This document shows positions 5,464 through 43,234 of a stretch of DNA of 64,000 bases, piece after piece. The position numbers and the translations under genes are program-made. The stretch covers positions 160,001 to 224,000 of the forward strand of contig CAWJJC010000027.1 in assembly GCA_963843145.1 (NCBI GenBank). The letters are read 5' to 3'. The stretch is from an uncultured delta proteobacterium. Lineage in GTDB: Bacteria; Desulfobacterota; RBG-13-43-22. The notes below the pieces were generated by a model. That model had not been told where the DNA came from. It searched no databases and worked only from the letters and a program-made list of their open reading frames with translations. The first letter of the stretch is position 1, and every line of letters starts with the position of its first letter.

Positions 5464-5475
5464 CTCTTTCTCCCC

Positions 5476-12426: not shown

Positions 12427-12637
12427 ATGAACATCGAACATCGAACGTCCAACATCGAATGTTCAATGGAAAAAGATGAAGAAACAGGCCTATGCTCTGG
12501 AAGAAAGGTTGCTCGAATATTCGGTCAGAATCATAAAATTCGTTGGGCGGCTCCCCAATACCTGGACAATCAGCCATGTTGGATGCTTGTTTTTCATTCG
12601 ATGTTGAACGTTCGATGTTCGATGTTCGGCGTTCATT
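12427..12637 (+). mobile_element. Heptamer-unit inverted-repeat element enclosing a truncated four-helix-bundle (23S rRNA IVP-like) gene remnant
   Basis: Arms atgaacatcgaacatcgaacgtccaacatcgaatg / cattcgatgttgaacgttcgatgttcgatgttcggcgttcat; interior reads MKKQAYALEERLLEYSVRIIKFVGRLPNT.. Confidence 0.7.
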
Positions 12638-12667
12638 CTTTACAACACCCTGGTCGGTAATCCCCGC

Positions 12668-13267
12668 GTGATGTCTTCATTGCTGAATTGGGACATTATC
12701 TTCTTTACCCGGATCAACCAGGGGCAGCAAAATGCCTTTTTTGACCGGGTGATGCCCTATATCACCGAATTTGATCACTGGAAATTCTGGTTTTTAGGCG
12801 CCTGGCTGATCTGGTTCGTCTGGGGAAGCAAGAAGACCCGGATCACCCTGGTCCTGCTGGTCCTGCTGGTGGGCCTCCTGGATTACAGCAACAGCTTTTT
12901 TTTCAAACCCCTCTTTGCCCGGTTGCGCCCCTGCAATGCCCTGTCGGAGGTCCGTATTTTTTGGCCCTGTCCGCGATCCTTTTCTTTCCCTTCCAATCAT
13001 GCCGCTAATGTCTTCGGGGGGGTTTTCTTCTTATCCTATATTTACCGCCGCTGGGCACCCGGATTAATTTTCATCGCCCTGCTGGTAGGGTACTCTCGCA
13101 TCTATGTGGGGGAACATTTTCCGTTGGATGTGGTCGGCGGGGCGGTTCTGGGCGCCGTCGGGGCCGGGGGGATGCTCTTCTTCCGTTTTCAGGTCTTGCG
13201 CTGGTGGAAAACCGAAGCGCTTTCAGCGGGAAAAACCGACCGGCCTATTGATCCCCGAAAGGGTTAG
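12668..13267 (+). CDS. PAP2-family membrane phosphatase (undecaprenyl-diphosphatase-like)
   Basis: KPLFARLRP, SFPSNHA, SRIYVGEHFPLDV motifs. Confidence 0.92.
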   Translation: MMSSLLNWDIIFFTRINQGQQNAFFDRVMPYITEFDHWKFWFLGAWLIWFVWGSKKTRITLVLLVLLVGLLDYSNSFFFKPLFARLRPCNALSEVRIFWPCPRSFSFPSNHAANVFGGVFFLSYIYRRWAPGLIFIALLVGYSRIYVGEHFPLDVVGGAVLGAVGAGGMLFFRFQVLRWWKTEALSAGKTDRPIDPRKG

Positions 13268-13703
13268 GTTCTCGCGGGATCGGACTTTTCCCGACGGTGG
13301 TATCTTTCGCCAGGTCTTTCTTCGCCTCGCTGGTTTTGGCTTTTCCCGGCAGGTTATGGATTTGGCGCAGCAGACCGTCCAGATCCTCCTTCTGCCGGGC
13401 ATAAAGATCCTTGACCGTATATTCCAGGTAGGCAATCCGGTTTTCGAAAGTCTTCATTTTGGTCGCGAAAAGCTGATTCAGAATCCGGGCGGCCACCAAA
13501 ACCCCCAGCAACAAAAAGATCAAGAGGATGGCATTCAAGAGGGGATAATTAATCACCAGCCTCCCCCGGTAAGGAGGAGGCGACCCGGAAAGCCCCTGTC
13601 CCCAAACGCAACCCACATCCAGCGTCGAAGCCGCAAGAACCAGACAGCCGGCGGCGCCTCCCAGCAACCCCAGGGTCAGACCACTTTTTATGAAGGGTCC
13701 CAT
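13245..13703 (-). CDS. Hypothetical membrane protein with C-terminal coiled coil
   Basis: Hydrophobic segments then a charged helical tail; start set at ATG 13703 because the longer ORF-track start lies in a repeat. Confidence 0.5.
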   Translation of the reverse strand: MGPFIKSGLTLGLLGGAAGCLVLAASTLDVGCVWGQGLSGSPPPYRGRLVINYPLLNAILLIFLLLGVLVAARILNQLFATKMKTFENRIAYLEYTVKDLYARQKEDLDGLLRQIHNLPGKAKTSEAKKDLAKDTTVGKSPIPREPNPFGDQ

Positions 13704-13739
13704 GGTTTTTCCCTCCGATCTATTTTGGTCACCTACTCC

Positions 13740-13869
13740 ATCGACAGTTGAACGTCCAACATCGAATGAAATACAAACCGCCATGGCCGAACAGGAAATA
13801 CCTAATTTCTGTTTCTTCATCTTTTCCCATTGAACATTCGATGTTGGAGGTTCGATGTTCAATGTTCAT
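13740..13869 (-). repeat. Second, more deleted copy of the 12427-12637 element, opposite orientation
   Basis: Reverse complement reads atgaacattgaacatcgaacctccaacatcgaatgttcaatgggaaaagatgaagaaacag...cattcgatgttggacgttcaa, nearly identical to 12427-12488. Confidence 0.8.
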
Positions 13870-13881
13870 CTTTGAGATTGG

Positions 13882-15546
13882 TTAAGTTTTGGTCTTCCCC
13901 TTTTCCAGTCGGCGTTTCTCCTCGTCTCGAATTTCGCGGCGCAGGAGTTTGCCCACCTTGGATTTGGGCAGCATATCCCGAAACTCGATGTACTGGGGTA
14001 TCTTGTAGGCGGCCAGTCGTTCCCGGCACCATTTGATCAATTCGGCACCGCCCACGCCTTTGGCGTCGCTTTTCAGGACCACGATGGCCTTAATACGTTC
14101 GCCGACCTTAGGGTCGGGGATCCCGACGGCGCAGGCACCGATGACCGTGGGGTGATCCTGCAAAACGGCCTCGATTTCCGAGGCGGAAACCCGATAGCCT
14201 TTAAATTTGATGATATCCGCCAATCGTTCCACATAGACCAGATCGCCCTGTTCAGTCCTTCGGACAAAATCACCCATCCGGTAATACTGCTTCCCGTTCA
14301 GGGGAATATAAGCCTTGGCCGTTTCCTCCGGCTTGTTCCAGTACTGCTTGAGGGTGAAATCGGAGGTCACCAGCAATTCCCCCACCTCCCCGGTCGGGAC
14401 CGGCGCCAGGGTTTCCGGGTCCACCACCAAACATTGCCGGGACTGGAGGGGGGTCCCGATCGACTGGGGATCCGGTTCGTGGTCCAGTCGGCTGTAGGTG
14501 ATATGGCCGACCTCGGTGGAACCATACACCTGGTAAATGGGTTGCCCGACGGTCTCTTTCCAGCGATGAGAGACTTCCAGGGGCAACATATCGCCGCCGC
14601 AATAGCAGTATTTTAAACTCCGCAGATCGTAACGCCCCAGGCGGTCGTTTTCCAGGATCATTCGGTAAAGCGTAGGCACTCCCAAAAACCAGCGAACTTG
14701 GAACCGCCGGATATCTTCCAGAATGGCGTCCACTTGGGGTACGGGCATCAGGATGGTGGTATTGCCCTGATTCAACCCCACGGCCATAAAGAACCCCAGG
14801 GCCATAATATGGAAAAGAGGGTTGACGGCAATATAAGTATCCCCGCCTTCCCGAACGTGGCCCTGAACCACGTCCTCCATGATATCCTGAATGTAGGAGG
14901 TCATGCCCTGGTGGTTTCCCGGCACTCCTTTGGGAAAGCCGGTCGTTCCGCCGGTATATAAAATATACGACAAATCGTGACGGGGATCAATTTTTACGGA
15001 GAGGGGAGCGGTGGAAATCTTCAGCAAATCCTTAAACGAATGGATCAGGCCGCCCCGTTCGACCTTGCCTCCGGGAATCTTATCGAAGAGGGTGCCGATG
15101 ACCCGCTTCCAGACCGGCAGGAGGTCCGCCAGGTTGGTGACGATCACCCGTTTCAGGGGCGACTTCGGCAGAATTTCCTTCACATAGCCAAAATTGGTAT
15201 CATGGCAGATGATGGTTTCGGCCCCGGCGTCCCGGATCATATATTCGATCTCATGAGAGGTATAAATGGGGGAAACCGGCATGACCACCGCCCCGATCTT
15301 TTGGATCCCCAAGAAGGCCACCACCCACTGGATGCAATTGGAAATATAAATAACCACTCGATCCCCCTGTTTCACACCCAGGTGGGATAATCCGGCGGCA
15401 AAACGGTTCGCCAGTTCATTCAGTTTCAGGTAGGAGAATTTTTCCCCTAAAAAAACCACGGCCGTGTTCCGGGGGTATTTTTCGGCCATGCGTTCAAATT
15501 GGGCAATAACGGGTTCTTCCAAATAAGGTCGGGAGGCCATGGTCAA
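13882..15546 (-). CDS. AMP-forming acyl-CoA synthetase/ligase
   Basis: YTGGTTGFPKG, YGSTE, YYRMGD, GYRVSASEIE, LPKSKVGKLLRR. Confidence 0.93.
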   Translation of the reverse strand: MTMASRPYLEEPVIAQFERMAEKYPRNTAVVFLGEKFSYLKLNELANRFAAGLSHLGVKQGDRVVIYISNCIQWVVAFLGIQKIGAVVMPVSPIYTSHEIEYMIRDAGAETIICHDTNFGYVKEILPKSPLKRVIVTNLADLLPVWKRVIGTLFDKIPGGKVERGGLIHSFKDLLKISTAPLSVKIDPRHDLSYILYTGGTTGFPKGVPGNHQGMTSYIQDIMEDVVQGHVREGGDTYIAVNPLFHIMALGFFMAVGLNQGNTTILMPVPQVDAILEDIRRFQVRWFLGVPTLYRMILENDRLGRYDLRSLKYCYCGGDMLPLEVSHRWKETVGQPIYQVYGSTEVGHITYSRLDHEPDPQSIGTPLQSRQCLVVDPETLAPVPTGEVGELLVTSDFTLKQYWNKPEETAKAYIPLNGKQYYRMGDFVRRTEQGDLVYVERLADIIKFKGYRVSASEIEAVLQDHPTVIGACAVGIPDPKVGERIKAIVVLKSDAKGVGGAELIKWCRERLAAYKIPQYIEFRDMLPKSKVGKLLRREIRDEEKRRLEKGKTKT

Positions 15547-29802: not shown

Positions 29803-30787
29803 ATGGATAAAAAGTCATACGAGGATTTAGAAATATTCACCATTCAATTTCCTAACGTTCTGATCGGCCACGCTTCCTATCCGGACGGACCTACCGGTTG
29901 CACCGTGATCCTATGCCCGGAGGGGGCGGTGGCCGGGATGGATGTTCGGGGTTCGGCCTCCGGAACCCGGCAGACTGACTCCCTCGCCGCCCTCCACCGG
30001 GTACCCCACATTCATGGGATCTTATTGGCCGGGGGAAGTTCCTTCGGTCTGGATGCCAGCGGCGGGGTGCTGCAATATCTGGAAGAGACGGCGCATCGGG
30101 TTTGACGTAACGGTAACCCGGGTGCCCATCGTGCCTTCCGCGATTCTTTTCGACCTGGCCTTCGGCAATCCGGCCGTTCGGCCGGACAAGGCCCTGGGGT
30201 ATCAGGCTTGCCTGAACGCCTCGGCCGGTACAGTAGAGGAAGGGAGTGTCGGGGCTGGGACCGGGGCTACCATCGGGAAGCTGTTCAGCGTCCTCCAGGC
30301 CACCAAAGGCGGCCTGGGCTATGCCTCCACCACCCTGGAAAACGGGCTGACGATCGCCGCCCTGGTGGTGGTCAACGCCTTCGGCGATGTGCGGGATCTC
30401 GAGGGAAACATCCTGGCTGGGGCTCGCACCGGCCCCCAGGACACCACCTTTGCCGACACCTGGGCCTGCATGAAACAGGGAATCCAGCCCAAACAATTCG
30501 TGGTTCAGAACACCACCCTGGGCGTGATCCTGACCAACGCCCGCCTGGATAAGGCCGATGCCCGCAAACTGGCCCAGTTGGGCCAGAACGCCCTGGCCCG
30601 GGTGATCGCCCCCGTACATACCCTCTACGACGGGGACATCGTCTTCGCCCTATCCGTGGGGCCGGTCGAAGCCGGTCTGATGCAGGTGGCCATCGTGGCC
30701 CAGGAGATGCTCCAGGAAGCGATCATCCGGGCGGTTAAAGCCGCCGACGGCCTGGGTCGCCTCCCGGCCTGGCGGGATTTGCAGTAA
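29803..30787 (+). CDS. P1/S58 family peptidase (DmpA-like aminopeptidase), frameshift near 30088
   Basis: TGCTVIL, DVRGSASGTR, LAGGSSFGL, then VPIVPSAILFDL, GSVGAGTGAT, VVNAFGD, NTTLGVI, HTLYDGD. Confidence 0.88.
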
Positions 30788-30906: not shown

Positions 30907-32109
30907 TCACTGAAGGTCTGTAAACGATTGGGGATGGAGTTCCAGGTACCGGGATAACAATTCACGCATCATAGCCGAAGAATCAGGTTCGGGAGCAAAT
31001 ACCTCCCGTGCCCCATCCAAAGGATTCATCTTGCCACCATACATTGCTCGGGCTAATCGGGTACATTTGGATATATGCCGACCCACTTGATGGGACTGTA
31101 TCCTTTGGGTGTAATCACGAAAAGAAAAATCACTGGTTTGAAATGAATCGATAATCGCTTGGGCGGCCACCTCCCCATAAGATAGCGATAGATGGATTCC
31201 TCCTCCAAAGGCAGGCTCAATTCCTGCAGCGTCTCCCACCAGGATCACATTGGGCTTTGACAGGATGTCATCTTCCGAATGCCAGGGAATGGGGTGACTG
31301 GACCAGGTTTCGGGACCCCGATGAATATTCAGTCTTTCTAATTCACGGCCGAATATCTTCTTCATGTCTGCCCTAGGTCTATGGGGCCATACCCGGAAAT
31401 CAACAATGCCATGGGCGATGGAAGGGGCCTTACCCTTTAAGCAAGGCACGTGCCAAACATAGCCTTGCAGGCCCTCATCTATAGGCGAGAGATCAACAAC
31501 CGCCTTCTTTCCATTGAATTCGTCATCATAACGGGAATCGACCGCAGCGAATATCTGAAGTGTAGGCGCAAGATGGTGTTTCCGAGATGAGATCATCTTC
31601 TTGCGAACTGCGCTGAAAGCTCCATCCGCACCAACGAGGGCTTGGACGGCATATTTCCCCTTATTGGTTGTTACAATCAGCTTTTTCCGGGTCCGAAGAA
31701 TATCGATAAGCATTTCGTCTTCATGTAACTCAAGACCTCGATTCACCGCTGCTCTTGCCAGGGCATGATCAAAGTCCACACGCTGCACGATTCGAAAATA
31801 ATTGTTGTGGTGAAGACGATCAATCTCTTGCCCAAATCTGAACTCGAGACCAGAAACATACAGGGATGGAACATTGAGGTCCACCCTCAGGTTAGCCAGC
31901 ACATCTGCAGCCCAAATACACACGCCTCCCCCACACAACTTGTCGCGTGGGAAAACGGCTTTTTCTAAAACAATTGAACGGCGAGCCAATTGCGGGACCA
32001 CTTTTTGAAGATGCAACCAGGTGGAAATCCCTGCCGGCCCCGCCCCAACAATCATAATCGGGCAATTCAATAAACCGATTGTCGCTTTTGATCCTCGCGA
32101 AGGCATCAC
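30907..32109 (-). CDS. FAD-dependent oxidoreductase, geranylgeranyl reductase family
   Basis: IVGAGPAG, EKAVFPRDKLCGGG, VGADG, LVGDAAGIEPAFGGGI. Confidence 0.85.
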   Translation of the reverse strand: MMPSRGSKATIGLLNCPIMIVGAGPAGISTWLHLQKVVPQLARRSIVLEKAVFPRDKLCGGGVCIWAADVLANLRVDLNVPSLYVSGLEFRFGQEIDRLHHNNYFRIVQRVDFDHALARAAVNRGLELHEDEMLIDILRTRKKLIVTTNKGKYAVQALVGADGAFSAVRKKMISSRKHHLAPTLQIFAAVDSRYDDEFNGKKAVVDLSPIDEGLQGYVWHVPCLKGKAPSIAHGIVDFRVWPHRPRADMKKIFGRELERLNIHRGPETWSSHPIPWHSEDDILSKPNVILVGDAAGIEPAFGGGIHLSLSYGEVAAQAIIDSFQTSDFSFRDYTQRIQSHQVGRHISKCTRLARAMYGGKMNPLDGAREVFAPEPDSSAMMRELLSRYLELHPQSFTDLQ

Positions 32110-32116
32110 AAATCCT

Positions 32117-33808
32117 TTATAAAAGTTCTTTCAAACACCTGAGAAGTTCCTGGCCATGCGGGACCCCCCAACCTGTCACGGCATCAAAACCCCAGCAGGC
32201 TTTATAGGGTTCACAGTAATATTTTCCAGGGCCTGAAACTGCGTTATTCCCTTTTTTAATATCAACGAAGGCGGCGTTGCCGACTTGCTTACCGTTTTTC
32301 ATTTTTTTGTAGAGCATGGGAGTCAAGAATGGCAGCTTCTTGTCCGGGGGCAGCTTGGCTTTGATTCGAGCGATGAGCGCGGCCCAGACCGGTGCCGAAG
32401 CGCTCGTTTTGCCTTGCGGCCACGACTGCTGGAGAAAAACCAATTGATAATACGGCCAGCCAGCCAGGGCTGACACATCGGGCACCACGCGTTTCTTCCC
32501 TCTTGAGTAGTGGTTCGGATCAATATGACCAGTCTCCTGCCAAACCGGGCGATTGAATTTCCTGCAAACGCCGCCTCCGCTTGCGCTTCCCGGAAGCCTT
32601 TGTCCGTGCGGATCATCAGGGTCTTTTTTCGAATCTTCCCTCCAGGCGACCTCCTCTAAGGTGGATTTTTCCAACATGGTTCCGCCAACGGCCAACACGT
32701 ATGGGCTAGAGCTCGGAAAGTCGACGTGGTAACGGCCATCAGTAATTTGATTCCTCCAACCATCGTCCCCCGAGGCGACGCAGGTGGTGATGCCCTTCCT
32801 GCTTACCTGATTCAATAGGGCATCGATTTTAAAGATTTCGCCCTTTGACCATCGACGGTCATCCTCGGCATAACCCCAACTGATAGATAATACGACCGGG
32901 GTCGGCCTTGTATGGATCACCTTGGTGAGGAGATCGCACCAGCCCTTCTGTGTGTTTTTGGCAAAGAAGACCAAGATATTCGCCTTGGGACATAAGCCTG
33001 CGATGAGCTCCACATCCATCATCACCTCGAAAGTCATTAGCATTTTTTTTAATCGCAGCTCTGGATCTGGAATGCCGAGGATGTCCTTAAGCGTAAGGAC
33101 CTTGGCACCGGCCTTGGAACCGACCCGGATCAGCTTAATATTGGGAGCACGGGGAGGACGTTTATGTACGACATCCTTGAAATATTTAGTCAAGTCCTCT
33201 CTGAAATATCCCCCGCCAAATTGGGCGATCGCGATGGTCTGGCCCGCACCTTCCCCGAGGGGAAAATTATAATGGTTCGCGATCACCTTCGGTGTCCACG
33301 GTTCTGAAAGCACTTTTTTGCCAGTAGTTAAAGCGACACCTGACTTGGGAAATGCCATTTGTCGTTCGTCAAGCCCAAAGACCCCGGTCACGATTCCCTC
33401 GAGTTCCTTAGGGATTTTGAGCTTTCCCGCCCGGCCGCGATACAGGCCCTGAGTAGGCGATCGCTTCATCTCCCATTGAGGGTCAAAAGCTTTTTTCAAA
33501 TTCTCGGCAGTTCCGTTGACCTGCATGGTGCGCGTTAAGAGGGAGACCTTTTTTACTTTAAGTTTATACTTCTTCTCGAGCACTTCCTTTACCTTGTCGG
33601 CATCTGCCTCTTTGGCGCCAAATTTCTCCTTTAATTCCTTTGGGCTCATGATTCGGCCAGCAAATTCGTCCGGACCAGGAAGTTTCGGCCCCGATAATCC
33701 TATGGTTACGCTAATCTTCTCCCTGGGGTCGATATCGCCGACTTTTTTAGCGGTTGTATCCTTCCCGCGTTCGCTATCTTTTAGGTCCACAAGCGTATTC
33801 TTGGCCAT
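32117..33808 (-). CDS. S53 (sedolisin/kumamolisin-like) serine protease with pro-domain, no signal peptide
   Basis: EVMMD (catalytic E-x3-D), SISWG, ASGDDG, PSSSPYVLAVGGT, VPDVSALA, GKTSASAP (catalytic Ser), FDAVTGWGVP. Confidence 0.92.
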   Translation of the reverse strand: MAKNTLVDLKDSERGKDTTAKKVGDIDPREKISVTIGLSGPKLPGPDEFAGRIMSPKELKEKFGAKEADADKVKEVLEKKYKLKVKKVSLLTRTMQVNGTAENLKKAFDPQWEMKRSPTQGLYRGRAGKLKIPKELEGIVTGVFGLDERQMAFPKSGVALTTGKKVLSEPWTPKVIANHYNFPLGEGAGQTIAIAQFGGGYFREDLTKYFKDVVHKRPPRAPNIKLIRVGSKAGAKVLTLKDILGIPDPELRLKKMLMTFEVMMDVELIAGLCPKANILVFFAKNTQKGWCDLLTKVIHTRPTPVVLSISWGYAEDDRRWSKGEIFKIDALLNQVSRKGITTCVASGDDGWRNQITDGRYHVDFPSSSPYVLAVGGTMLEKSTLEEVAWREDSKKDPDDPHGQRLPGSASGGGVCRKFNRPVWQETGHIDPNHYSRGKKRVVPDVSALAGWPYYQLVFLQQSWPQGKTSASAPVWAALIARIKAKLPPDKKLPFLTPMLYKKMKNGKQVGNAAFVDIKKGNNAVSGPGKYYCEPYKACWGFDAVTGWGVPHGQELLRCLKELL

Positions 33809-33846
33809 GACAGATCTCCTCCTGTAACGGTCTTCCGTAGAAGCGT

Positions 33847-35184
33847 TTATTTTATGTATTTCGTATCGAAGCCCTCAGGTGACCGATTAACTTTCTCAAT
33901 AAATCTATTCCATTTTTCTTCATTAGTCATAAATTCTGCCACCTTGAGCAGGGTCGCTTTCGTAACGGCGCGAATTATGGTGCAAATACTTTCTCGTGGC
34001 GCGTTTAAAGATCCGCAGGCGGCAAAGGTATCTCCATAGCATGGGGAGCACAATTTCTTGGCCCAGCATTGGACACACTTGGGAAAGCTGTCCTTGGAAG
34101 TCTGACTCATCAGCGCTGTCACCCTCCTAAAGTACTCACCTGGAAAATCTCTGTCATAGACGCTTCCCATGTATAGACTTTTGCTCATGACCGTATGGCA
34201 AGGGAATACCTTCCCTGTGCAGTCTACCGTAATCCCCTGGCAACCGGCGTCACAGAAACGGGCTTTCCCCTTCCGGGATGTGAGGGTATTCAAAATATCA
34301 AGCCAATAAGGAATTCTTATCGGGGAATCGGTCAACCAACTATCCATAATCCTCTCGGTCGAAGAAATGTAGCTTTGTTCCAAATCGGATAATAAAGCCT
34401 GATCAAAATATTCATCCGGTGATCCCCCGATGGCAGGGGTTAAGGATATTTCCCGGGCTCCCAAATTAAGTAAAAATTCGTAGATCGATTCGACGGGCTC
34501 CTTACATTCCCTGTGATAGTCAGTGAATACGGCTTGTATCCCGAATGCAACACCCGCATTTCGAAGCAGGTCGATTTTCTTCTTGACTAAGTAATAGGTA
34601 CCTTTCCCTGACGACAATTTGCGCTGCCTGTCATTAATGTGCGGGGGGCCATCCAGACTGATACTCACCGAGAAATGATATTTTTTAAAAAATTCAATCA
34701 TTTTTTGATCGATTAAGGTTCCATTGGTGCTGATCGAGAAATCCGGCATCAGCCTTTGATGGGCCATACAGTATTTTTCACTGGCTCGTACAGCCTCCCT
34801 GATGGCAGCAAAACCGATTAAGGGCTCACCTCCAAAAAACACAAGGCTCTGGACTTCCGGTGCGGTTTTGAATACTTTCTCGATGGCAGCACGGGCAGTA
34901 GCCGGGCTCATGACTCTGCTCTCAGGATGCAAGTCCATGTAGGCCTCGGCAAAACAATAAGAGCATTTGATATTACACGTTTGCGCTACCAATAAAACGA
35001 GGCGAGTGATTTTCGCCGGATCGGCTTTGATTGGATCATCCCTAATTGACTCCTTTAATTGCTCTGAAATGGATACCTCATCAATCGATAGAGAATCGGC
35101 AACCCGAGCCGGCAACGGATACAGGGTGAATGATTCCGTACTGAAGGCGGCGGCATTGAGATTTGACTTGAGGATTTTAATCAC
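33847..35184 (-). CDS. Radical SAM/SPASM peptide maturase-like protein
   Basis: CNIKCSYC, FFGGEPL, TNGTL, ISLDG, SPASM C..G..FPC..CVQCWAKKLCSPC..C; likely start GTG 35184 after AAAGGAAG (ORF-track start 35250 lies in a hairpin). Confidence 0.9.
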   Translation of the reverse strand: MIKILKSNLNAAAFSTESFTLYPLPARVADSLSIDEVSISEQLKESIRDDPIKADPAKITRLVLLVAQTCNIKCSYCFAEAYMDLHPESRVMSPATARAAIEKVFKTAPEVQSLVFFGGEPLIGFAAIREAVRASEKYCMAHQRLMPDFSISTNGTLIDQKMIEFFKKYHFSVSISLDGPPHINDRQRKLSSGKGTYYLVKKKIDLLRNAGVAFGIQAVFTDYHRECKEPVESIYEFLLNLGAREISLTPAIGGSPDEYFDQALLSDLEQSYISSTERIMDSWLTDSPIRIPYWLDILNTLTSRKGKARFCDAGCQGITVDCTGKVFPCHTVMSKSLYMGSVYDRDFPGEYFRRVTALMSQTSKDSFPKCVQCWAKKLCSPCYGDTFAACGSLNAPRESICTIIRAVTKATLLKVAEFMTNEEKWNRFIEKVNRSPEGFDTKYIK

Positions 35185-35226
35185 AACAAGCTTCCTTTTT
35201 TCGGTCCCATCGAGCTTCAAAGGAAA

Positions 35227-35253
35227 TCGGTGGGGTTTAAGGAACCCCACCGA
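35227..35253 (-). terminator. Intrinsic terminator/stabilising hairpin between precursor and radical SAM genes
   Basis: Perfect 11-bp stem tcggtggggtt/aaccccaccga, 5-nt loop, followed on the minus strand by tttccttt. Confidence 0.6.
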
Positions 35254-35435
35254 CAGACTGCACTGCTGTGTGACCGGTAAAGACGCCGGTACATGGACAA
35301 GTGGCCTTCATTTTGCGCCCCCCCGCCGTTGAGTCGACACAGACAAATCCAGACTAATGATCGAAAGGGTCAAAGCAGTAAGGGTAACCGTTCTAATTTC
35401 CTTACCCAGAGTCTTGAATACTCCTTGTTGCCTTA

Positions 35436-35696
35436 TCAATAAACTTTTTGCCCTGAGGGGCAGGGTGGAGGAATTGGGCTCGGATTAGGATCAGGAACCT
35501 TCCAATTTTTCTTGGCGGTCAGTATATCCTTGCAATCGTTGTAAGGTATGTCCTTGTAGCCTTTTGCCTGGAAGAAATTGTAAAGTGTTGTTTGGCTCTT
35601 TTTTGACAAGAAATCTCTTACAAGTTTTGGTTTCTTTTCTGTATCAATAATGAAGTTTATAAAATCGCTTCTGTTTCTTTGGGTTATAGACGCCAT
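35436..35696 (-). CDS. Putative RiPP precursor peptide (Nif11-like helical leader, Pro-rich C-terminal core)
   Basis: 86 aa, AAAGGA RBS, lies between two radical SAM genes; DFINFIIDTEKKPKLVRDFL...FFQAKGY resembles a Nif11-type leader; tail WKVPDPNPSPIPPPCPSGQKVY. Confidence 0.6.
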   Translation of the reverse strand: MASITQRNRSDFINFIIDTEKKPKLVRDFLSKKSQTTLYNFFQAKGYKDIPYNDCKDILTAKKNWKVPDPNPSPIPPPCPSGQKVY

Positions 35697-35741
35697 TTTT
35701 CATCCTTTTCTTTTGGTTGAAGTTTTAAAGTTAAAAGTCGG

Positions 35742-35810
35742 TTAACTCAGGAAGATACCCATTTTTTGCCAACACCGTCGATACTTTTGTTTTTTTTCGT
35801 AACTCGTCAT
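35742..35810 (-). CDS. Possible 22-aa small ORF (MTSYEKKQKYRRCWQKMGIFLS)
   Basis: AAGGAGG Shine-Dalgarno directly upstream of ATG 35810; below the ORF-track cutoff. Confidence 0.3.
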   Translation of the reverse strand: MTSYEKKQKYRRCWQKMGIFLS

Positions 35811-35907
35811 ATCCCTCCTTTCTTTTCCGTAGTTTTTATCAGTGGCTGCTTACGGGCTATTCATAAAGTACGCCTAATAGGCAAGTCCAGGCCTCTAGTT
35901 CGTCCGG

Positions 35908-36973
35908 CTAGGTTCCCAAAATCGGTTGTCCCATGGCCAGACTATCCAGAACCCGACGGCAATAGGGTTTATCCGGGTAAAAGTCTCCATACCCTTGCGG
36001 GGGCCGAATCATTCCATTCTTCTTACAAAGTCGGACATATGGGCACGATGGACAGGTCGTATCATCCGGCGCAACGGTCATTCGATATCCCTCGGAAGCC
36101 AGTACTTTTTGAATCATACCGAACTTGTATCTGCCCAGGCTATTTCTGTTGGAGTGCACCACACTAATATGTCGGTTGGCCATGACAATCAGGCATCCCT
36201 CGCGGTAGAGGGGAGGGACCCGAGGGATCCAGGGCATCTTGAGCATCTGAGAAACGACATTGGCCAGAGGGTTCTTCTTCACAATGGCACGGAAACCGCC
36301 CACGTCCAGAAGCGCAACCATTCGCACCAGTCTCACGAAGTCTTCCGGTTCAAGAAGCTCTTCCGATAGGGCAAAGGCGCCATTCTCTGTCCTGATAAGC
36401 TGTATGAGAATTAGATAGTCAATACTTGGAAATCTCCTAAACAGATCATCAACGAAAAGAGGCAGCTCCAACAGCAGGCTTTTTGTAACTGTTGTGAAAA
36501 TGGTAAGATCAATTCCCCTATTGACCGCCTCCTCAATGCCCCGCATCGTCCTTCGATGGGATCCCTTTCCCCGTATGCGGTCATGCAAGGCTTCGGGGCC
36601 ATCTAGGCTGATGGACATCGAAAAAAAGCTGCCGTAGTCGGCGAATCTTTTGCTGATCTCTTCCGTAATGAGTGTTCCATTGGTATTCAGGAAGATTGTT
36701 TCGTCATCCGACTTTAAAGCCATGGTCCAGGGTCTCGAACAAGCCTTCCCAGAGCAGGGGCTCACCCCCTGTAATATGCAGGTGACGGTATCCGGCATCA
36801 TCTCCTTCGACTATTATCTCTTTGACCAAATTGACGGGGAGAGTAGAGCTTCTGGAGATACTAGAGCGGGCAAAACAGTGCACACAGGAGCCGTTGCATC
36901 GAGTGGTCACTTCTATAGAGAGTTTTTCTTGCCCCACTCCTCGACAGATTTCATCTGAAGTGGTCCCCTTCAT
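35908..36973 (-). CDS. Radical SAM protein (PqqE/NirJ/MftC-like) with reduced SPASM, split by a 1-nt insertion near 36705
   Basis: First part SIEVTTRCNGSCVHCFA, TGGEPLL; second part NTNGTLIT, SISLDGPEALHDRIRGKG, CPSCPYVRLC..PYC; TGATG overlap with the upstream gene. Confidence 0.82.
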
Positions 36974-37968
36974 CAGCGATTCTCCCCATTCCTCAACGGT
37001 TTCAAAAGGCAACGAAGCTCATCAGCGAAGCCTGCAAGACCGCAATAATCCGCCCTGGCTGCGGCTGATTCCAGCTCGCCGCATATCCTCTCCCTGATTT
37101 TATCGATCATCCCGTTGATCAGGATATAATTAAGAACCCTTCCGGCAGGGCCGCCCTTTCGGTTCACTTTTTCGTCCTTGACTCGGTCCCATTTTTTCCT
37201 GATGTCGTTGGGAAGACAGGTGTACAGGGAAGAATGGGTTCCCTTTATCAAATCCTTCTCGATGTCCTGCAGATCATCGAGCAGCCTCCAGGCAATGCCG
37301 AAGGAGGAATAGACCGTCTGAACAGATCGAGAAAATTCTTCATTACCGGCGATTCTTTTGGCCATCAGGACGGGGGCGATCAGCCAGGTGGCCATCTGTT
37401 TCTTAAAGAAATCGCAATAGCTATCCAGAGACTCCGTTTGATCAGATGTGTCAATGCTGGAATAATAATCTTCGATAAAATCATAAACAATTGCCGGCCC
37501 ATCTTCCACTCCCCTGGCCAGTCTCTCGAAGCCATGGTTCATGATCATCCAGGATTGGCTTCTTAAAAGGAGGGCCAGGTGTGAAACAGGCAATTGTCCA
37601 TCGGTAAGATGGTCGTCAAAAGCATGAAGGAACATGGCCATGGTATGACCGGTCTTTGCATCTTTAATAAATTTTGTGCCCAGTTTTTTGTTTCCCGGAC
37701 AGGACCGATGGAGCCAAAAAAGGATCGACCAGGCTGGCGCGTAGAAGTAGTTGACAAAACTAAGGCCGTCACTAAGGGAAGCATGCAGGTATTTCATCAA
37801 GAACAGGGTTGCCTTGGTCCGCATGGATTGAGGCAAGTATTCACAGAATGACAGGATTTCCCGATTCAGCTCTCCACGGAAGGTTTCTTCTTCTCGGGAG
37901 AGGCCCACAGCGCCAAAATCGATCCGGGAGCAGAATGACAACATATCGGCGATCCTGCCTCTCATCAA
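36973..37968 (-). CDS. Class I isoprenoid-synthase-fold protein (polyprenyl synthase/terpene synthase/ComQ-like)
   Basis: Two Asp-rich motifs, HAFDDHLTD and RLLDDLQDIEKDLIKG, in a predominantly helical-looking protein. Confidence 0.7.
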   Translation of the reverse strand: MMRGRIADMLSFCSRIDFGAVGLSREEETFRGELNREILSFCEYLPQSMRTKATLFLMKYLHASLSDGLSFVNYFYAPAWSILFWLHRSCPGNKKLGTKFIKDAKTGHTMAMFLHAFDDHLTDGQLPVSHLALLLRSQSWMIMNHGFERLARGVEDGPAIVYDFIEDYYSSIDTSDQTESLDSYCDFFKKQMATWLIAPVLMAKRIAGNEEFSRSVQTVYSSFGIAWRLLDDLQDIEKDLIKGTHSSLYTCLPNDIRKKWDRVKDEKVNRKGGPAGRVLNYILINGMIDKIRERICGELESAAARADYCGLAGFADELRCLLKPLRNGENR

Positions 37969-40900
37969 AAACCCCTCATCTCGACCAGTCGATCTATTTC
38001 TTCCAGATATGTTTCCATTTTCATTTCTTCATACCAGGCCCGTGCCTTCCCCAGATACGCCTCTCCCTTGATATTATCGAGCTTCTTATACTGGGCCTTT
38101 TCTTCGAGCAGGCATCTGCCAACCTCGAAGTAAAGCCTGGCCAGTTGAGGACGCGCCCCCAGGCGCTCCCCTTCCTGAACCGCTCTATGCCACCATCCGA
38201 GAGCTTTTTTGTGGTCATTGATCGTCCAGTAATAGGCTCCAGTAAGCCTGTACGAATCGGTCCGATGATAGGCCACTTTACGAGCAACCCTTCCCAGTGA
38301 TCTGATGGATTTGATGGCTTCCCTCTGGAATTTATCCATTTCCTCTCGATTTCCGCTTTTGGTTGATTCCCTCAAACAGTAGAGGTTATATTCCAGGTGA
38401 GTCTTAAAACAGTACGATATTTGAAAAGGGGCCGTTTCGGTTTGAACCCTAATTCTGTCGGCCTGTTCAAGGCACTCCTCCGCCTTATCGATTGCATTCA
38501 TCATGATGTGTATCCATGCCTGGAATGTATGGAACCCCCACCAAAAATTTGAATGTGCTTTTTGCCCAAAAGCAATTCCCTTTTCGCTCTCTATCAAAGC
38601 ATCATTGAGCTTCCCGGACTCGATCAGCAGCATCGTGCTAATCTCATATTTAAATACCTCGGAAAGACTATTCCCATAGACTTCGTAGAGATTTTGCAAT
38701 CTGTCCATGATCGCCCTGGCCTTGTCGAAGGAACCCTGGCAGATAGTGCCAAGGCCATGCCAGAACAAATATTGTGAGGCATTATAGATTTCTCCAATCC
38801 TGCAGTTCTTGTCTACGAGATCATCGTCATAATCCTTTAAGGCTTTCCAATTCCCCCCAAGGAAATGGTGTACCGTCTCGCAGACCTCATACATGGTGTA
38901 ATTCGTGACATCGCTTCGGCTGACGGTGTCGCTCAAAGCATTCAATGCCTTTTTGCTCAAGGCAAATGAAATTCCAGAATATGCAAACAAAGCGCTTGCC
39001 ATTACGAAGATCCCATAACCCTCTCGGAATTTTCGAAGATCGAAGGAACTGATGAACCTAAACAAATAGAAATATTCAATGAAAAATCTCTTGGCGTTGG
39101 TTAGGGATATGGAATTGATCTTTTTGGAGAACAGATCGACGATTTCGACATCTCGCTCCGTCGGCGTTTTCTTGAACTTCAGGAAGGGAAGGTGCAGGGA
39201 AACAAGAAAATGGGAAAAAGCCCACGAGAGCTTAATTAATTCAAAAACCGTGGCTTTAGGTAATTTCCCCCAGTAATAATCCAAGGTTTTGTCAAAATGC
39301 CTGATAGCCTCCTGGTGTTGCCCCCGGTTATATAAGGCCAGAGCAATGTTCTTTTCCAACATGGCCACCTTTTCGGGGTCAGCATTTTTGCCGGACTTTT
39401 TCAAATAGAGTTGGAGAGCTTCCTCATAATAATGCAGGGCCTCATCCGAGGCGGCTGATCGCAGGGCCTCCTCACCGGCCTTGATCAAGTATTCCTCGGC
39501 TTTCTCCAGACTCTCGGCCCGACAGTAATGATAGGCGAGCATGCCGTAGAACTCGTGAATTCGCTCGCTAAAGATTTTTTCTATGGACTGGGCCACTTTT
39601 TGGTGGATCTCTTTTCTCCTCTGGATCAGGATGGACTCATAGACCGCCTCTTGAGTTAAGGCGTGCGCAAAGAGATACTCTACCTCCTCCATTCGCTTCC
39701 TTTCCCTTATGAGCTGAATCTCCTTGAGGGCCTCGAGCCTGCTGTCGACCTTCTCGATGTGCCCGGCCACCGCGGTAAGGATCCGGTAGAAGAAGTTCCT
39801 GCCGATGACGGAGGCGATCCGGACCAGATTCTTTGTTCCTTCATCCAGCCGGTCGATACGGGCCATAATGAGGGCATGGATGCTCTGAGGAATGACGATA
39901 TCCTCGATCTTTTCCGTGACCCGGTATTCTCCCTTTTCCTGAACCACGGCCCTTTCAATGATCAAGGATCGCACTACTTCTTCAATAAAGAAGGGATTCC
40001 CTCCTGCTCTTTGGAGAATCTGCTCTCTCAGTAGATGGGGAAAACTTTTAATCTCGAGAAGATTATTGAGCAGTTGCCCACTCTCCGATTCTTTCAAGGG
40101 TTCCAGTTCGATCTTGGTCCAGTTGGTTGCATAGTTCTCCTGGATGAAGGCGATGATCCGCTCTCCGGTGTCGGTATAGCCGGGACGGAAGACTATAATA
40201 AAAAGAATCCGGCATTCTTCCACCAGGCGGAAGAGGGCCTTGAGAAGTTCTAGGGAACTCGTATCCACCCAGTGGAAGTCTTCCATATAGATCATCATTG
40301 GTCTGACTTCAGAGCCCCTAATGAGCAGCTCCCGCATGCTCCTAAAGATAAGCTTTTCTAAGGCCTCCCCTTCGATGCCCAGAACCCGCTGGGCGGATTT
40401 TTCGTTAAGCTTCATCCCCATGAGGGTAGCAATGAAGGGAAAGATCTCCCCGGCTTCCTCGGGATGAATGTCCCGAATGGCCCGCTCAAGTTTCCACTGG
40501 GCCTCTGCATCGGTGTCCTTGCCCCTGATCTGGGACCAATACTTCAAGGCGTCGACGATGGGATAAAAGCTTAGGCTTCTCCCCATGGAAATGGCACGAC
40601 CTTCGAGGAAGACGGTCTTTTTGACGGCTGCTGTTTGGCGCAGTTCGGCCAGAAGGCGGGACTTCCCGATCCCCGGCTCGCCGATGACGGTGATAATCCC
40701 TCCCTGACCATTGATGAGGCGAACGACCTGAAGCGATAGGAGATCCATTTCCTTCTCTCTTCCTACTAGAGGGGAATCAAAACCCACCGATCGCCTTGTT
40801 TTTTCCTTTTTCCCCACTACCCGATAAATCTTTACTGGTTCGGTCTTGCCTTTGACCCGAGCGGGGACGAGCGGTTCAAAATCAAAAAGCCAATCAGCCC

Positions 40901-41549
40901 GACGAAAGGTGTTGTGACCCACTAAAATCTCACCGGGCCGCGCCAGCGTAGACAACCGGGATGCCAGATTAACCGTATCTCCGGTAATTCCAAGGATTCC
41001 CTTTCCCAATGTTACTTCACCGGTAACGACCAGTCCTGTATTGATCCCTGAATGCATGGCCAAACGCTTTCCGACCGTGTACTCAAATTGAGGACTAATG
41101 TCCTCGATCCGTTCATGTATTTCTCTCGCCGCTCGGATCGCTCTAACCGGATCATCCTCATGAACCTTGGGCACCCCAAAGAACGCTACCACCGCATCAC
41201 CGATAAATTTCTGAATAGTCCCCTCATATTTACTCACTGTATCGCTCATCTCACCGAAGATCCGGTTCATGATCTTTTTAACCTCTTCAGGATCCAACCG
41301 CTCAGACATGGCCGTATATCCGGAGAGATCAGAGAAAAGAACCGTCACCTGCTTTCGTTCCTCTTCGATGGCTGATTCTATCTGTCTGGCAGCTAATACA
41401 TCTAATTGCCGCCCGCACCTGCCGCAGAACTGAAATCCCTCGGGATTTACGAAATGGCAGGCAGGGCAAATCCCCTCCAATTTGGTACCACATTTTCCAC
41501 AAAAATCCAGGCCATCGGGGTTATGATATTGGCATTGGGGGCATTTCAT
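37965..41549 (-). CDS. Double zinc ribbon + class III nucleotide cyclase + STAND-type ATPase + TPR protein
   Basis: CPQC..CGKC..CPAC..CGRC; VLFSDLSGYT, KFIGDA, GDTVNLASRL; GEPGIGKSR, MEDFHW, GGNPFFIEE; helical repeats in the C-terminal half. Confidence 0.93.
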   Translation of the reverse strand: MKCPQCQYHNPDGLDFCGKCGTKLEGICPACHFVNPEGFQFCGRCGRQLDVLAARQIESAIEEERKQVTVLFSDLSGYTAMSERLDPEEVKKIMNRIFGEMSDTVSKYEGTIQKFIGDAVVAFFGVPKVHEDDPVRAIRAAREIHERIEDISPQFEYTVGKRLAMHSGINTGLVVTGEVTLGKGILGITGDTVNLASRLSTLARPGEILVGHNTFRRADWLFDFEPLVPARVKGKTEPVKIYRVVGKKEKTRRSVGFDSPLVGREKEMDLLSLQVVRLINGQGGIITVIGEPGIGKSRLLAELRQTAAVKKTVFLEGRAISMGRSLSFYPIVDALKYWSQIRGKDTDAEAQWKLERAIRDIHPEEAGEIFPFIATLMGMKLNEKSAQRVLGIEGEALEKLIFRSMRELLIRGSEVRPMMIYMEDFHWVDTSSLELLKALFRLVEECRILFIIVFRPGYTDTGERIIAFIQENYATNWTKIELEPLKESESGQLLNNLLEIKSFPHLLREQILQRAGGNPFFIEEVVRSLIIERAVVQEKGEYRVTEKIEDIVIPQSIHALIMARIDRLDEGTKNLVRIASVIGRNFFYRILTAVAGHIEKVDSRLEALKEIQLIRERKRMEEVEYLFAHALTQEAVYESILIQRRKEIHQKVAQSIEKIFSERIHEFYGMLAYHYCRAESLEKAEEYLIKAGEEALRSAASDEALHYYEEALQLYLKKSGKNADPEKVAMLEKNIALALYNRGQHQEAIRHFDKTLDYYWGKLPKATVFELIKLSWAFSHFLVSLHLPFLKFKKTPTERDVEIVDLFSKKINSISLTNAKRFFIEYFYLFRFISSFDLRKFREGYGIFVMASALFAYSGISFALSKKALNALSDTVSRSDVTNYTMYEVCETVHHFLGGNWKALKDYDDDLVDKNCRIGEIYNASQYLFWHGLGTICQGSFDKARAIMDRLQNLYEVYGNSLSEVFKYEISTMLLIESGKLNDALIESEKGIAFGQKAHSNFWWGFHTFQAWIHIMMNAIDKAEECLEQADRIRVQTETAPFQISYCFKTHLEYNLYCLRESTKSGNREEMDKFQREAIKSIRSLGRVARKVAYHRTDSYRLTGAYYWTINDHKKALGWWHRAVQEGERLGARPQLARLYFEVGRCLLEEKAQYKKLDNIKGEAYLGKARAWYEEMKMETYLEEIDRLVEMRGF

Positions 41550-41871
41550 TCTCGGGCTCTCCTTCGATAGAGACCCCTTAATAAAATTTCGGAAGGTGGC
41601 GGTGGAAATACAAAAGCCTCCATCAGGGCCTTACCCCATTGGAGGCTTCGTCTCGGAATTTTTTGAAACTCCCACTTCATATCCCAATCCAAAAGTTCTT
41701 TAGAGTTAGGTTAGGAAGTACACGAATATATTCAACTGTAGGATAAAACCTTAATCATACTTTAGACAAAATGTCAATGGCATTCTAGGTAAGCGAAGGG
41801 AAGGTCCTAAGGCCGGATGACTGGATGCGGGCCGGATAAGCGGTCGGCGGCTCCCTTCTCGGACTCCGCAA

Positions 41872-43234
41872 TCAGAATCCAATTTTGCTGCTGATCGTTA
41901 CCACCCGTTCCCGAATTTCTTCCCAATCCAGCGTCAACAGCTTTCGCTGCCGCATCACCATTTGCCCGGCAATAAAAACCGTGTCTACATCCGCCCCGGA
42001 GGCCGCATAGACTAAGTGGGAAAAGGGATGGTAGAGGGGGGTCAAATGGGGTTGGTTTAGATTGATCAAAATCAAATCCGCCTGTTTGCCCACTTCCAAA
42101 GAACCGATTTCTTTTTCCAGCCCCAGGACCTTGGCCGCCTCGAGGGTGGCCATTTCCAGGACGGAATGGGCCTCCAACACGGTAGGGTCGAGGCGATGGA
42201 CCTTGTGCAGGCGAGCGGCGGTGCCCATTTCCCGGAAGAGATCCAGGTCATTATTGCCGGCACAGCCGTCCGTGCCCAACCCCACGACTATCCCTCGGGC
42301 CAGCAGTTCCACAACCGGGGTGACCCCCGCCCCCAGCTTCATATTGCTTTCCGGGCAATGGCTAACACGTGTCCCCGCTTCGGCCAGGAGTGCCATTTCC
42401 TCCAGATCCGGATAATTCACATGGACCCCGATAGTGGAATCATCCAGACAACCCAACCTATGCAAATAACGAACCGGGGTCAGACCGGTTTGACCCTGGA
42501 CCAGGGCCACCTCCTCCCGGGTTTCCGCCAGGTGAATAAATAAAGGAATCGCCTTTTCCAGGGCCAGGGCCTTGGCCTTTTCCAGGGTCTTCGCGGAGCA
42601 GGTGTAAGGAGAATGGGGGAACAACCCCAGTCGGATCCCGAGGAGATTGTCCGGACCATTTTTCGATGAAATCCCGGGCCGAACGGATATTGTCGGCCGG
42701 GTCCGGGACACCCGGGGCCGGAAAATCAATCACCCCCGGGGCCAGGACAGCCCGCATGCCGGACTGATAAATCGCTCGGGCGGCGCCATCCAGGCAAAAA
42801 TAGCCGTCGGCCAGGGTGGTGGTCCCGGAGCGGATCATTTCAGCGCAGGCCAGGAGGCTTCCCCAGTAAACCGTCTCCGGGTTGATAAACCGGGCCTCCG
42901 CGGGGAAGATGTGCTTTTCCAGCCAGTCCTTCAGGGGCAGGTCGTCGGCCAGACCCCGGAAAAGGGTCATGGCCGAATGGGTGTGGGTATTGATCAGCCC
43001 CGGCAGGACCAGGAACCCCCGGCCGTCAATCACTTCCCGGGCCGTCCAGAGCTCCGGACAACGGGCGCCGAGATACGTAATCCGGCTGTCTTTGATGCCT
43101 ATGGAGCCGGTCGGAATCGGGTCGGGATGAGCCGGGGACAGGGTTAGGATCAGTCCGTCCTTGATCAAAAAATCAAAATCCTCCTCGACAGGCCCTTGTT
43201 GCGAGGGTAGTTTCGAATTTTGATATTTGGTCAT
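41872..43234 (-). CDS. mtaD: MtaD-like 5'-methylthioadenosine/SAH deaminase (amidohydrolase), copy 2, frameshift near 42638
   Basis: PGLINTHTH, LFRGLADDLPL, then PHSPYTC, HLAET, HCPESNMKL, GTDG; one extra G joins the two ORFs. Confidence 0.8.

Follow-up and report, generated by a model that had tools for sequence, protein, structure and literature searches.

A block of seven co-oriented genes in a stretch of 64,000 nucleotides from an uncultured delta proteobacterium (GenBank assembly GCA_963843145.1, contig CAWJJC010000027.1, positions 160,001 to 224,000; hereafter the window) belongs to a real, conserved and apparently undescribed system that resembles those for peptides that are made on ribosomes and modified after translation (RiPPs). 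The core of the system comprises a STAND-type protein with a cyclase domain, a protein with two Asp-rich motifs that we call the DDxxD enzyme, a radical S-adenosylmethionine (SAM) enzyme, rSAM1, and a peptide of 70-100 residues, and it usually comes with a flavoprotein resembling geranylgeranyl reductases (GGR). A second radical SAM enzyme (rSAM2) and an S53 protease complete the block in the window. The peptides end in an invariant Tyr, and the reading that we favour, with roughly even chances of being right, is that the four-gene core, usually together with the GGR-like flavoprotein, modifies this terminal residue, probably by prenylating it.

Conservation and layout of the gene cluster

A scan of metagenomes for the motif LHx[LWF]DDH[LI]xD returned 231 relatives of the DDxxD enzyme, of which the best 80 (47-85% identity) were kept as census loci. 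Adjacency was counted only in loci with more than 400 nt of flank on the relevant side. With this restriction, the DDxxD gene is immediately preceded by the STAND gene in 57/57 loci and immediately followed by a homologue of rSAM1 in 67/67. The order STAND cyclase, DDxxD enzyme, rSAM1 is also kept, where the contig allows, in nine genome loci outside the window. As for the peptide, a small open reading frame (ORF) ending in Tyr directly follows rSAM1 in 10/10 genome loci, and such an ORF is found in all 42 census loci with enough sequence, 40 by the automated procedure and two after inspection by eye. A gene order that recurs in dozens of independent contigs is beyond chance. The sequence-only reading of this DNA had proposed a conserved biosynthetic cluster around a small peptide and had named co-occurrence of the genes and conservation of the peptide beforehand as its refuting tests; both held up.

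The 331-aa DDxxD protein is present in 4/41 related genomes, the window's own counted, and its profile is found at E<=1e-10 in 9/401 genomes sampled from the phylum, two of the nine hits being fragments. Named carriers include an uncultured Desulfobacterales metagenome-assembled genome and the Olavius algarvensis Delta 4 symbiont.

Beyond rSAM1 the gene content is more variable. Among the 18 census loci with at least 5 kb of sequence on that side, a GGR-like gene was found in 10, rSAM2 in eight, a B12-like radical SAM gene in six, an S53 protease gene in four and an S8 protease gene in three. The full seven-gene layout of the window recurs in five other loci (L005, L030, L033, L047 and L050). 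A Pfam scan of 10 unassigned neighbours from long loci yielded S8 and C11 proteases, a flavoprotein of the CrtI/amine-oxidase type, a B12 radical SAM protein, a phosphoenolpyruvate carboxylase, a sigma-54 activator and a DUF6765 protein, with three neighbours matching no family and no transporter among the 10. rSAM2 and the S53 protease are thus accessory, B12-type radical SAM enzymes and S8 or C11 proteases being found elsewhere instead, and three protease families (S53, S8 and C11) are recruited across the clusters. The enzyme set put forward in the sequence-only reading stands for the STAND protein, the DDxxD enzyme, rSAM1, the peptide and, often, the GGR-like flavoprotein; its SPASM enzyme and its S53 protease are not part of the core. 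We found no published description of this gene set in the full-text literature covered, which lies mostly outside subscription journals and comes without supplements, in line with the earlier statement that no characterised cluster has such a combination of enzymes.

In the window, the genes run on the minus strand as follows.

37965..41549, minus strand: STAND-type signalling protein, 1194 aa, with Pfam domains DZR, Guanylate_cyc, AAA_16 and TPR_12; first gene of the block
36973..37968, minus strand: DDxxD enzyme, 331 aa, trans-isoprenyl-diphosphate-synthase (trans-IDS) fold; start at TTG 37968 or ATG 37965
35908..36973, minus strand: rSAM1, core radical SAM enzyme with a Cys-rich C-terminal domain; in two frames, with an extra base at 36705; ATG 36973-36971
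35436..35696, minus strand: precursor or scaffold peptide, 86 aa; helical leader of ~60 aa, variable linker, core ...PPPCPSGQKVY
35226..35254, minus strand: GC-rich stem-loop of 12 bp; terminator-like match between the peptide gene and rSAM2
33847..35250, minus strand: rSAM2, accessory radical SAM/SPASM-type maturase, 467 aa; Pfam Radical_SAM and NCBIfam matches
32117..33808, minus strand: accessory S53 (sedolisin-type) serine protease, 563 aa; Pro-kuma_activ and Peptidase_S8 domains, with a prodomain and a non-hydrophobic N-terminus
30907..32109, minus strand: GGR-like FAD flavoprotein, 400 aa; NCBIfam TIGR02032 as its best family

The number, orientation, order and ends of the genes are as read from the sequence alone, and so is the AT-richer composition of the block: its GC content is 0.45-0.52 across ~31000-42000, against 0.58-0.64 in the flanks. 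Aconitase and S58 peptidase genes on the plus strand and amidohydrolase genes on the minus strand flank it. The two short gaps reported at the distal end are indeed present (7 nt at 32110-32116 and 38 nt at 33809-33846). Of the two coupled junctions described earlier, the overlap between the DDxxD stop and the rSAM1 start is TGATG at 36975-36971 of the minus strand, as given. The stop/start overlap near 37965-37968 also exists, with the STAND stop codon TGA overlapping a TTG or ATG start, but the string there is TTGA, within TTGATG (37968-37963, minus strand), and not ATGA. The domain assignments hold as well, namely double zinc ribbon, class III cyclase, AAA_16 and TPR for the first protein, radical SAM for rSAM1, radical SAM with a weak SPASM match for rSAM2, pro-kumamolisin and subtilase domains for the protease, and a GGR-like flavoprotein. 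No exporter was seen within the block, which agrees with the initial description. A promoter scan gave no signal (7 sites vs 11.8 expected), and 20 terminator-like sites were found vs 13.1 +/- 3.7 expected. As a whole, what was observed in the sequence-only reading is partly confirmed, and its interpretation is partly supported.

The terminal tyrosine and the enzymes around it

The genome has one copy of the gene for the 86-aa window peptide, and the protein collection contains 7 homologues of this peptide. In an alignment of 17 peptides, Ile16 and the last Tyr are the only invariant positions. A conserved domain (DFIxFI...FL...L..FF..KGY.DI...DC..IL) makes up the first ~60 residues and is followed by a variable middle part. 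The penultimate position is free to vary, with V, I, G, S, K, C, D, N, F, A, E, L, R or Y occurring there in the alignment and the census loci. Tyr is also the last residue of 43/58 candidate ORFs of 50-130 aa in the zone after rSAM1. The ratio of non-synonymous to synonymous substitution rates (dN/dS) of the peptide gene is 0.21-0.82, below 1 in 21/21 pairs, although dS is close to saturation. The combination of a leader that is conserved, a linker that is free and a single terminal residue that is fixed marks the terminal Tyr as the site of chemistry, and this residue, which had escaped the sequence-only reading, is thus the likely target of the enzymes. The earlier label 'Nif11-like' finds no support in any profile model. 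Scans of the window peptide and its relatives with Pfam (E up to 10, 8 peptides) and NCBIfam (E up to 1, 17 peptides) gave no match to a leader model of the Nif11 or NHLP kind, and the other family matches in these scans, such as MazE at 17.7 bits, are at chance level.

The position and number of the peptide genes show some variation. In L046 the peptide (...CPDLGY) is encoded between the STAND and DDxxD genes, and L104 has two TTG-start ORFs, which end in ...KPKY and ...GPKY. Tandem precursor genes were observed in L083 (9067-9754, ...PDSY twice) and in L104 (9185-10086, ...PKY twice).

A second residue of the core covaries with one of the accessory enzymes. A Cys is found among the last 14 residues in 16/17 peptides from loci with rSAM2 and in 7/28 from loci without it (Fisher p = 7e-6), a p value that overstates the case because the loci are related. 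This count takes identical tails once and excludes L024, two spurious Tyr-ended ORFs and three rows whose downstream DNA was too short.

The DDxxD protein itself matches no Pfam or NCBIfam family. Its representatives number 252 at E<=1e-3 and 122 at E<=1e-30. The nearest clusters in the Atlas are automatically named 'terpene synthase' or hypothetical and are from Myxococcota, Actinomycetota and Thermodesulfobacteriota; in one of them, 47% of the members carry PF00348. In an alignment of 47 sequences, H115, H120, D123, W140, Y168, R228, D231, D232, D235 and D239 are invariant, and D118, D119 and R136 nearly so. Most of these residues belong to the two Asp-rich motifs, HxxDDHxxD and RxxDDxxDxxxD. 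An AlphaFold2 model of high confidence (pLDDT 95) was compared with solved structures by two independent programs. The top Foldseek matches are geranylgeranyl and farnesyl diphosphate synthases (probability 1.0, TM 0.55-0.66). In VIA-align 2, run against 48,161 chains, ranks 1-41 are all of the trans-IDS type (Z 22.2 to 12.7) and include the non-elongating prenyltransferases MoeN5 and Ord1; the top match superposes at a root-mean-square deviation of 3.0 over 286 residues at Z 22.2, and class I terpene cyclases come at Z 11-12.4. The protein thus has an all-helical fold superposable on trans-IDS enzymes together with two Asp-rich motifs, which bears out the isoprenoid-synthase fold attributed to it from sequence. 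A profile search of the Protein Data Bank gave weak matches (best E 0.0047), 19/21 of which are trans-prenyl synthases. Among eight long relatives scanned, only P0102 exceeds the PF00348 cut-off, at 28.6 bits. The genome also encodes two ordinary polyprenyl synthases, which might supply a prenyl donor.

The same eight long relatives turned out to be fusion proteins that join the DDxxD domain to a radical SAM or a flavin-dependent domain. Five are fused to a radical SAM domain; in one of these, P0013, the radical SAM half aligns with rSAM1 over 335 gap-free residues at 50% identity. One is a fusion of a GGR-like flavoprotein with a DDxxD domain (P0052), whose flavoprotein half is 25% identical to the window flavoprotein, both proteins having the K-x-C-G-G and G-Y-x-W segments. 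The remaining two, P0120 and P0157, are distant relatives fused to FAD_binding_4 domains of the vanillyl-alcohol-oxidase type.

As for rSAM1, the CxxxCxxC motif and PF04055 place it in the radical SAM superfamily; with PF04055, the two pieces of the window gene score 40.1 and 45.5 bits and its intact orthologue in L005 scores 84.5 bits. Intact orthologues have 344-400 aa, and the searches were made with such proteins from other loci, the window gene being left unmended. The enzyme has no N-terminal extension, the CxxxCxxC beginning near residue 25, and its C-terminus carries CxxCx5C plus more Cys residues. The best NCBIfam scores of the intact L009 protein are with AhbD (93.8 bits), AhbC (91.9), NirJ1 (80.5), MftC (77.5) and MoaA (~65), all far below the cut-offs.

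In the window, rSAM1 has the radical SAM domain and the gene position ascribed to it earlier, but it is not a single ORF. Its N-terminal part (36973-36704), with the motif CNGSCVHC, stops at a TGA at 36706-36704, and its C-terminal part (36810-35908) continues one base out of register. Compared with four orthologues (L005, L006, L009 and L007), the window has an extra base at 36705, reading GGATGAC where the others have GGAT-AC/TC. If this frameshift were real, the pathway would be dead in this organism. The extra base is present in the window and lies outside any homopolymer run, as a genuine mutation might. Several observations nevertheless make a real frameshift quite unlikely. A contig of 231 nt from a public sequencing run, spanning 36519-36750, omits exactly base 36705 and is otherwise identical; it is a single contig of low depth (2.4), from one of the four runs that share words with the stretch, and possibly derives from the sample that was used for the assembly. 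The rest of the cluster genes are intact. Both flanking genes are also frame-broken relative to intact congener orthologues with 91-95% identity: the S58 peptidase gene (29842-30784, plus strand) lies in two frames with a break near 30065-30087, and the amidohydrolase gene (41875-43234, minus strand) lies in two frames with a break near 42617-42636. Three single-frame breaks within 13 kb point to assembly indels, and rSAM1 is therefore very probably intact in the organism, the extra base probably being an assembly error. A programmed frameshift is discounted in view of the single-frame orthologues and the independent contig lacking the extra base.

The GGR-like flavoprotein of the window has TIGR02032 (GGR) as its best of 25 families, as proposed earlier, at 119.1 bits over positions 3-297 of 297 and below the cut-off of 158.8; its other NCBIfam scores are 66 bits with BchP/ChlP, 52 with MenJ and 27 with QhpG. 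Sixteen orthologues share invariant K57, C59, G61 and Q215-G-Y-x-W-x-x-P222, and the K-x-C-x-G and G-Y-x-W-x-x-P segments are presumably GGR signatures. An AlphaFold2 model built from these orthologues has a pLDDT of 43, too low for a fold comparison. The protein resembles the GGR family (archaeal GGR, ChlP/BchP and MenJ) in matching the whole TIGR02032 model, and differs from it in scoring below the cut-off and in that halogenases come slightly above GGR among its solved relatives (22-25 bits).

Proposed chemistry and the alternatives

Trans-IDS-like enzymes that act on peptides are known. PalQ prenylates the C-terminal Trp of a leader-bearing peptide (PMC10853753), and PalQ and ComQ are the nearest working analogues of the DDxxD enzyme. 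The PalQ/PalX and ComQ/ComX pairs likewise combine an enzyme of trans-IDS fold that has two Asp-rich motifs with a ribosomal peptide. With PalQ the system would further share a C-terminal aromatic target residue and a peptide with a long leader (PMC10853753; PMC13290415). It differs from both in that the conserved residue is Tyr, no Trp being conserved in the peptides, and in that the DDxxD enzyme is always accompanied by a radical SAM enzyme and a STAND cyclase, neither of which is part of those systems.

On this basis we propose a route that starts from what is observed, namely gene content, conservation, the invariant Tyr, fold, motifs, fusions and the covariation of Cys with rSAM2, and in which every chemical step is inferred. 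The ~60-aa leader domain would be recognised by the enzymes and dock the peptide on them. With its two Asp-rich motifs, the DDxxD enzyme would bind Mg2+ and a prenyl diphosphate, and it would transfer the prenyl group onto the terminal Tyr, in the way that ComQ and PalQ prenylate Trp. rSAM1, which is fused to the DDxxD domain in some organisms, might perform a radical step on the same Tyr, either an oxidative decarboxylation or a C-C or C-O ring closure. The GGR-like, or CrtI-like, flavoprotein could then saturate the double bonds of the prenyl chain. In the sub-type found in the window, rSAM2 would in addition cross-link Cys79, the conserved Cys of the core (CPxGxxxY), and the product would be cut from its leader by the S53 protease in the cytoplasm. 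As there is no exporter, the product probably stays in the cell or its membrane. The genes of the STAND cyclase and the enzymes are coupled in translation, and this cyclase probably ties the system to signalling by cyclic nucleotides.

Several points weigh against prenylation of the Tyr by this set of enzymes. A shared trans-IDS fold, seen here in a model, would not prove prenyl transfer, and the window protein has no match to PF00348 (polyprenyl_synt, cut-off 27 bits) at E<=0.01; alignment of the DDxxD profile with that of the genome's own polyprenyl synthase by hhalign reached a probability of 8.9%, with only an Asp-rich motif aligned. All characterised trans-IDS-like peptide prenyltransferases target Trp, according to a 2026 review (PMC13290415). 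The predicted complex of the DDxxD enzyme with the peptide speaks for their pairing, but its support is weak: its ipSAE is 0.44 (best control 0.01; partner pLDDT >=70; run agreement on >=47% of contacts), above a mark that 58/80 solved complexes and 2/110 mismatched pairs reach, and 7/80 of the former and both passing mismatches score at <=0.60. rSAM1 is frame-broken in this assembly and remote from all characterised radical SAM enzymes, with its best family at 94 bits vs a cut-off of 500 and SkfB (46 bits) and BlsE (38 bits) as its best solved relatives, so that its reaction is a guess. The flavoprotein stays under its family cut-off, its solved relatives by sequence are two flavin halogenases (25 and 24 bits) followed by an archaeal GGR (22 bits), and a GGR-like gene is present in only 10/18 of the loci with >=5 kb downstream. 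The census falls short of the whole DDxxD family because its 80 loci are the closest relatives, at 47-85% identity. The prenyl donor, the acceptor and all of the chemistry are putative.

Alternatively, the terminal Tyr might be converted without any peptide prenylation, as in the making of mycofactocin or PQQ. The mycofactocin system includes a peptidase and a flavoenzyme, has no exporter and yields an intracellular product. Here, rSAM1 would decarboxylate or rearrange the Tyr, the flavoprotein would oxidise or reduce the product, and the protease would release a redox-active cofactor or small molecule. The DDxxD protein would act as the leader-binding partner of rSAM1, in the role of MftB or PqqD, or else produce or bind a co-substrate that carries a diphosphate. 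We give this alternative a real, though minority, chance. MftC is a radical SAM enzyme that carries out the oxidative decarboxylation of a C-terminal Tyr (PMC10288494), and mycofactocin is the nearest analogue for a radical SAM enzyme acting on such a residue. In both systems the C-terminal Tyr of a small peptide would be acted on by a radical SAM enzyme that has auxiliary clusters. The invariant Tyr after a free penultimate residue, the presence of a protease and a flavoprotein with no exporter, and the lack of an N-terminal peptide-recognition extension in rSAM1 all fit this route. So do the matches of rSAM1 to AhbD (94 bits) and MftC (77.5 bits), both oxidative decarboxylases, and the DDxxD-rSAM1 fusions, which suit a partner role; the weak support from complex prediction would fit simple leader binding equally well. 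However, rSAM1 fails TIGR03962, the MftC model (77.5 vs 265 bits), and the peptides do not conserve the Val-Tyr pair required by MftC, the residue before the Tyr being free. No protein of the MftB, MftD, MftE or MftF type was named in the block by Pfam or NCBIfam, and an enzyme of prenyl-synthase fold is present instead. Furthermore, the invariant double Asp-rich motifs favour catalysis on a diphosphate substrate over mere binding, and two flavoprotein families whose classic substrates are isoprenoid chains, the GGR-like and CrtI-like ones, recur in the cluster.

Returning to prenylation of the Tyr, it is tempting to speculate that the peptide is a mere scaffold. In this variant, to which we attach a small chance, the Tyr would be prenylated, remodelled by the radical SAM enzyme, saturated and cut off, giving a tocopherol- or prenylquinol-like lipid without oxygen, which the STAND cyclase would sense or control via cyclic nucleotides. 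It would amount to a peptide-templated route to a prenylated aromatic lipid, a cofactor or a signal, in anaerobes.

If the system does prenylate its terminal Tyr, it would stand for a new class of products derived from ribosomal peptides, recognisable by a simple and testable rule, the invariant C-terminal Tyr, and give a function to a sizeable nameless protein family (252 representative clusters). Peptide prenylation by enzymes of the synthase fold would be extended from Trp to Tyr, the DDxxD enzyme being the first Tyr-directed one with a trans-IDS fold, and prenyl chemistry would be paired with radical SAM chemistry, in some organisms in one fused protein. The tie between a RiPP-like pathway and a STAND-type cyclase hints at a link from a modified peptide or lipid to a second messenger. 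The system occurs in bacteria of the sulfate-reducer type, including the symbiont of a gutless worm, and Myxococcota and Actinomycetota are among the phyla listed for related protein clusters.

Accessory enzymes, the STAND protein and variation among loci

The accessory rSAM2 has a Pfam Radical_SAM match at 68.4 bits and a SPASM match (PF13186) of 18.3 bits at residues 333-395, for a cut-off of 21.5. It aligns over its full length to several SPASM families of NCBIfam while scoring below their cut-offs: 186.8 vs 340 bits for PapB (NF047865), 180.7 vs 518.7 for the nif11 radical SAM family and 170.6 vs 453 for QhpD. It thus resembles the PapB, Nif11-peptide and QhpD maturases in aligning end to end (PapB positions 2-328 of 330), and thioether-forming maturases in its co-occurrence with a core Cys. 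It differs from them in staying under all curated cut-offs and in being accessory, and its peptide is recognised as neither Nif11 nor NHLP. As for the protease, Pro-kuma_activ (PF09286, 43.4 bits, cut-off 23.5) and Peptidase_S8 (PF00082, 36.4 bits, cut-off 21.8) give it the domains of a sedolisin.

These similarities raise the possibility that the cluster matures a quinone cofactor, in the manner of QhpC/QhpD/QhpE/QhpG or of LodB and GoxB. In such a route, hydroxylation of the peptidyl Tyr would fall to the flavoprotein, thioether formation to the SPASM enzyme and removal of the leader to the protease. All three of these enzyme types occur in the block, rSAM2 scores 170.6 bits with QhpD, the flavoprotein weakly matches QhpG (27 bits), LodB and GoxB, and the S8 protease of L006 weakly matches QhpE (24 bits). 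These scores are nevertheless far below the cut-offs, the flavoprotein being closer to GGR (119 bits) than to QhpG, and rSAM2 and the protease are accessory and not core. No dehydrogenase subunit genes are found nearby. In addition, bacteria of the Desulfobacterales type are anaerobes; the named carriers are of this type, and O2-dependent hydroxylation by a flavoprotein is unlikely in them. We therefore regard quinone maturation as very unlikely.

The STAND protein has Pfam matches to Guanylate_cyc (80.2 bits), AAA_16 (76.5), DZR (42.3) and TPR_12 (37). Its sequence contains FSDLSGYT, IGDA and GDTVNLASR, which we take to be the metal- and transition-state motifs of class III cyclases, and with these motifs visible the cyclase looks active. 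It matches TIGR03903, the TOMM system kinase/cyclase fusion, at 305 bits, with model positions 271-947 only and below the cut-off of 705.75. The likeness consists in cyclase, ATPase and TPR parts over 677 model positions, and the NCBIfam name carries a RiPP association; the difference is that the kinase part (positions 1-270) is unmatched, the STAND protein having an N-terminal double zinc ribbon instead.

Given this protein, the block might also be a defence or signalling module centred on the STAND cyclase, in which the small ORF would not be an enzyme substrate. A STAND NTPase with a cyclase is universal in the cluster, the block is AT-richer than its surroundings, and a congener carries a different cassette at the same site. 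The cyclase domain scores 67.7 bits with Pycsar models and the radical SAM cores 57 bits with pVip models. However, PADLOC-DB 2.0 identified no known anti-phage system, only matches of the PycC type (cyclase) and pVip type (radical SAM); they are generic, domain-level matches, with none for the DDxxD enzyme, the peptide, the protease or the flavoprotein. Peptide modification is typically marked by features such as the invariant Tyr, the covariation of Cys with rSAM2 and the enzyme fusions, which makes a module of this kind very unlikely.

The cassette of the congener, a genome of the same genus (L007, G002:C24:36000-55999, positions 4159-14745), lies, as the window's does, between the S58 peptidase and amidohydrolase genes. 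It encodes a STAND protein, a DDxxD enzyme, rSAM1, a peptide ending in ...ETGY, a B12-like radical SAM enzyme, an S8 protease and, in place of the GGR-like flavoprotein, one of the CrtI family. Its STAND gene, recovered as three tblastn pieces, and its flavoprotein gene (114 + 413 aa) look frame-broken. The GGR-like gene is also split in the Olavius Delta 4 contig (L010, 13130-14371, with ORFs of 193 and 191 aa) and in L053 and L054.

A co-oriented gene for a protein of ~700 aa lies inside three clusters (L028, 10571-12670; L057, 4069-6174; L075, 11620-13830). Two of the three copies were scanned with Pfam, and both match no family. This protein is a putative further accessory component of the clusters.

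The 12-bp stem-loop that follows the peptide gene in the window has a counterpart of nearly the same sequence at the equivalent place in L005 (~13296-13324), L030 (~9723-9751) and L033 (~9738-9760). It is thus a conserved extra feature of the window's sub-type, found in four loci including the window, and a possible attenuator or processing site. As it overlaps the called GTG start of rSAM2, the true start of this gene may lie further downstream.

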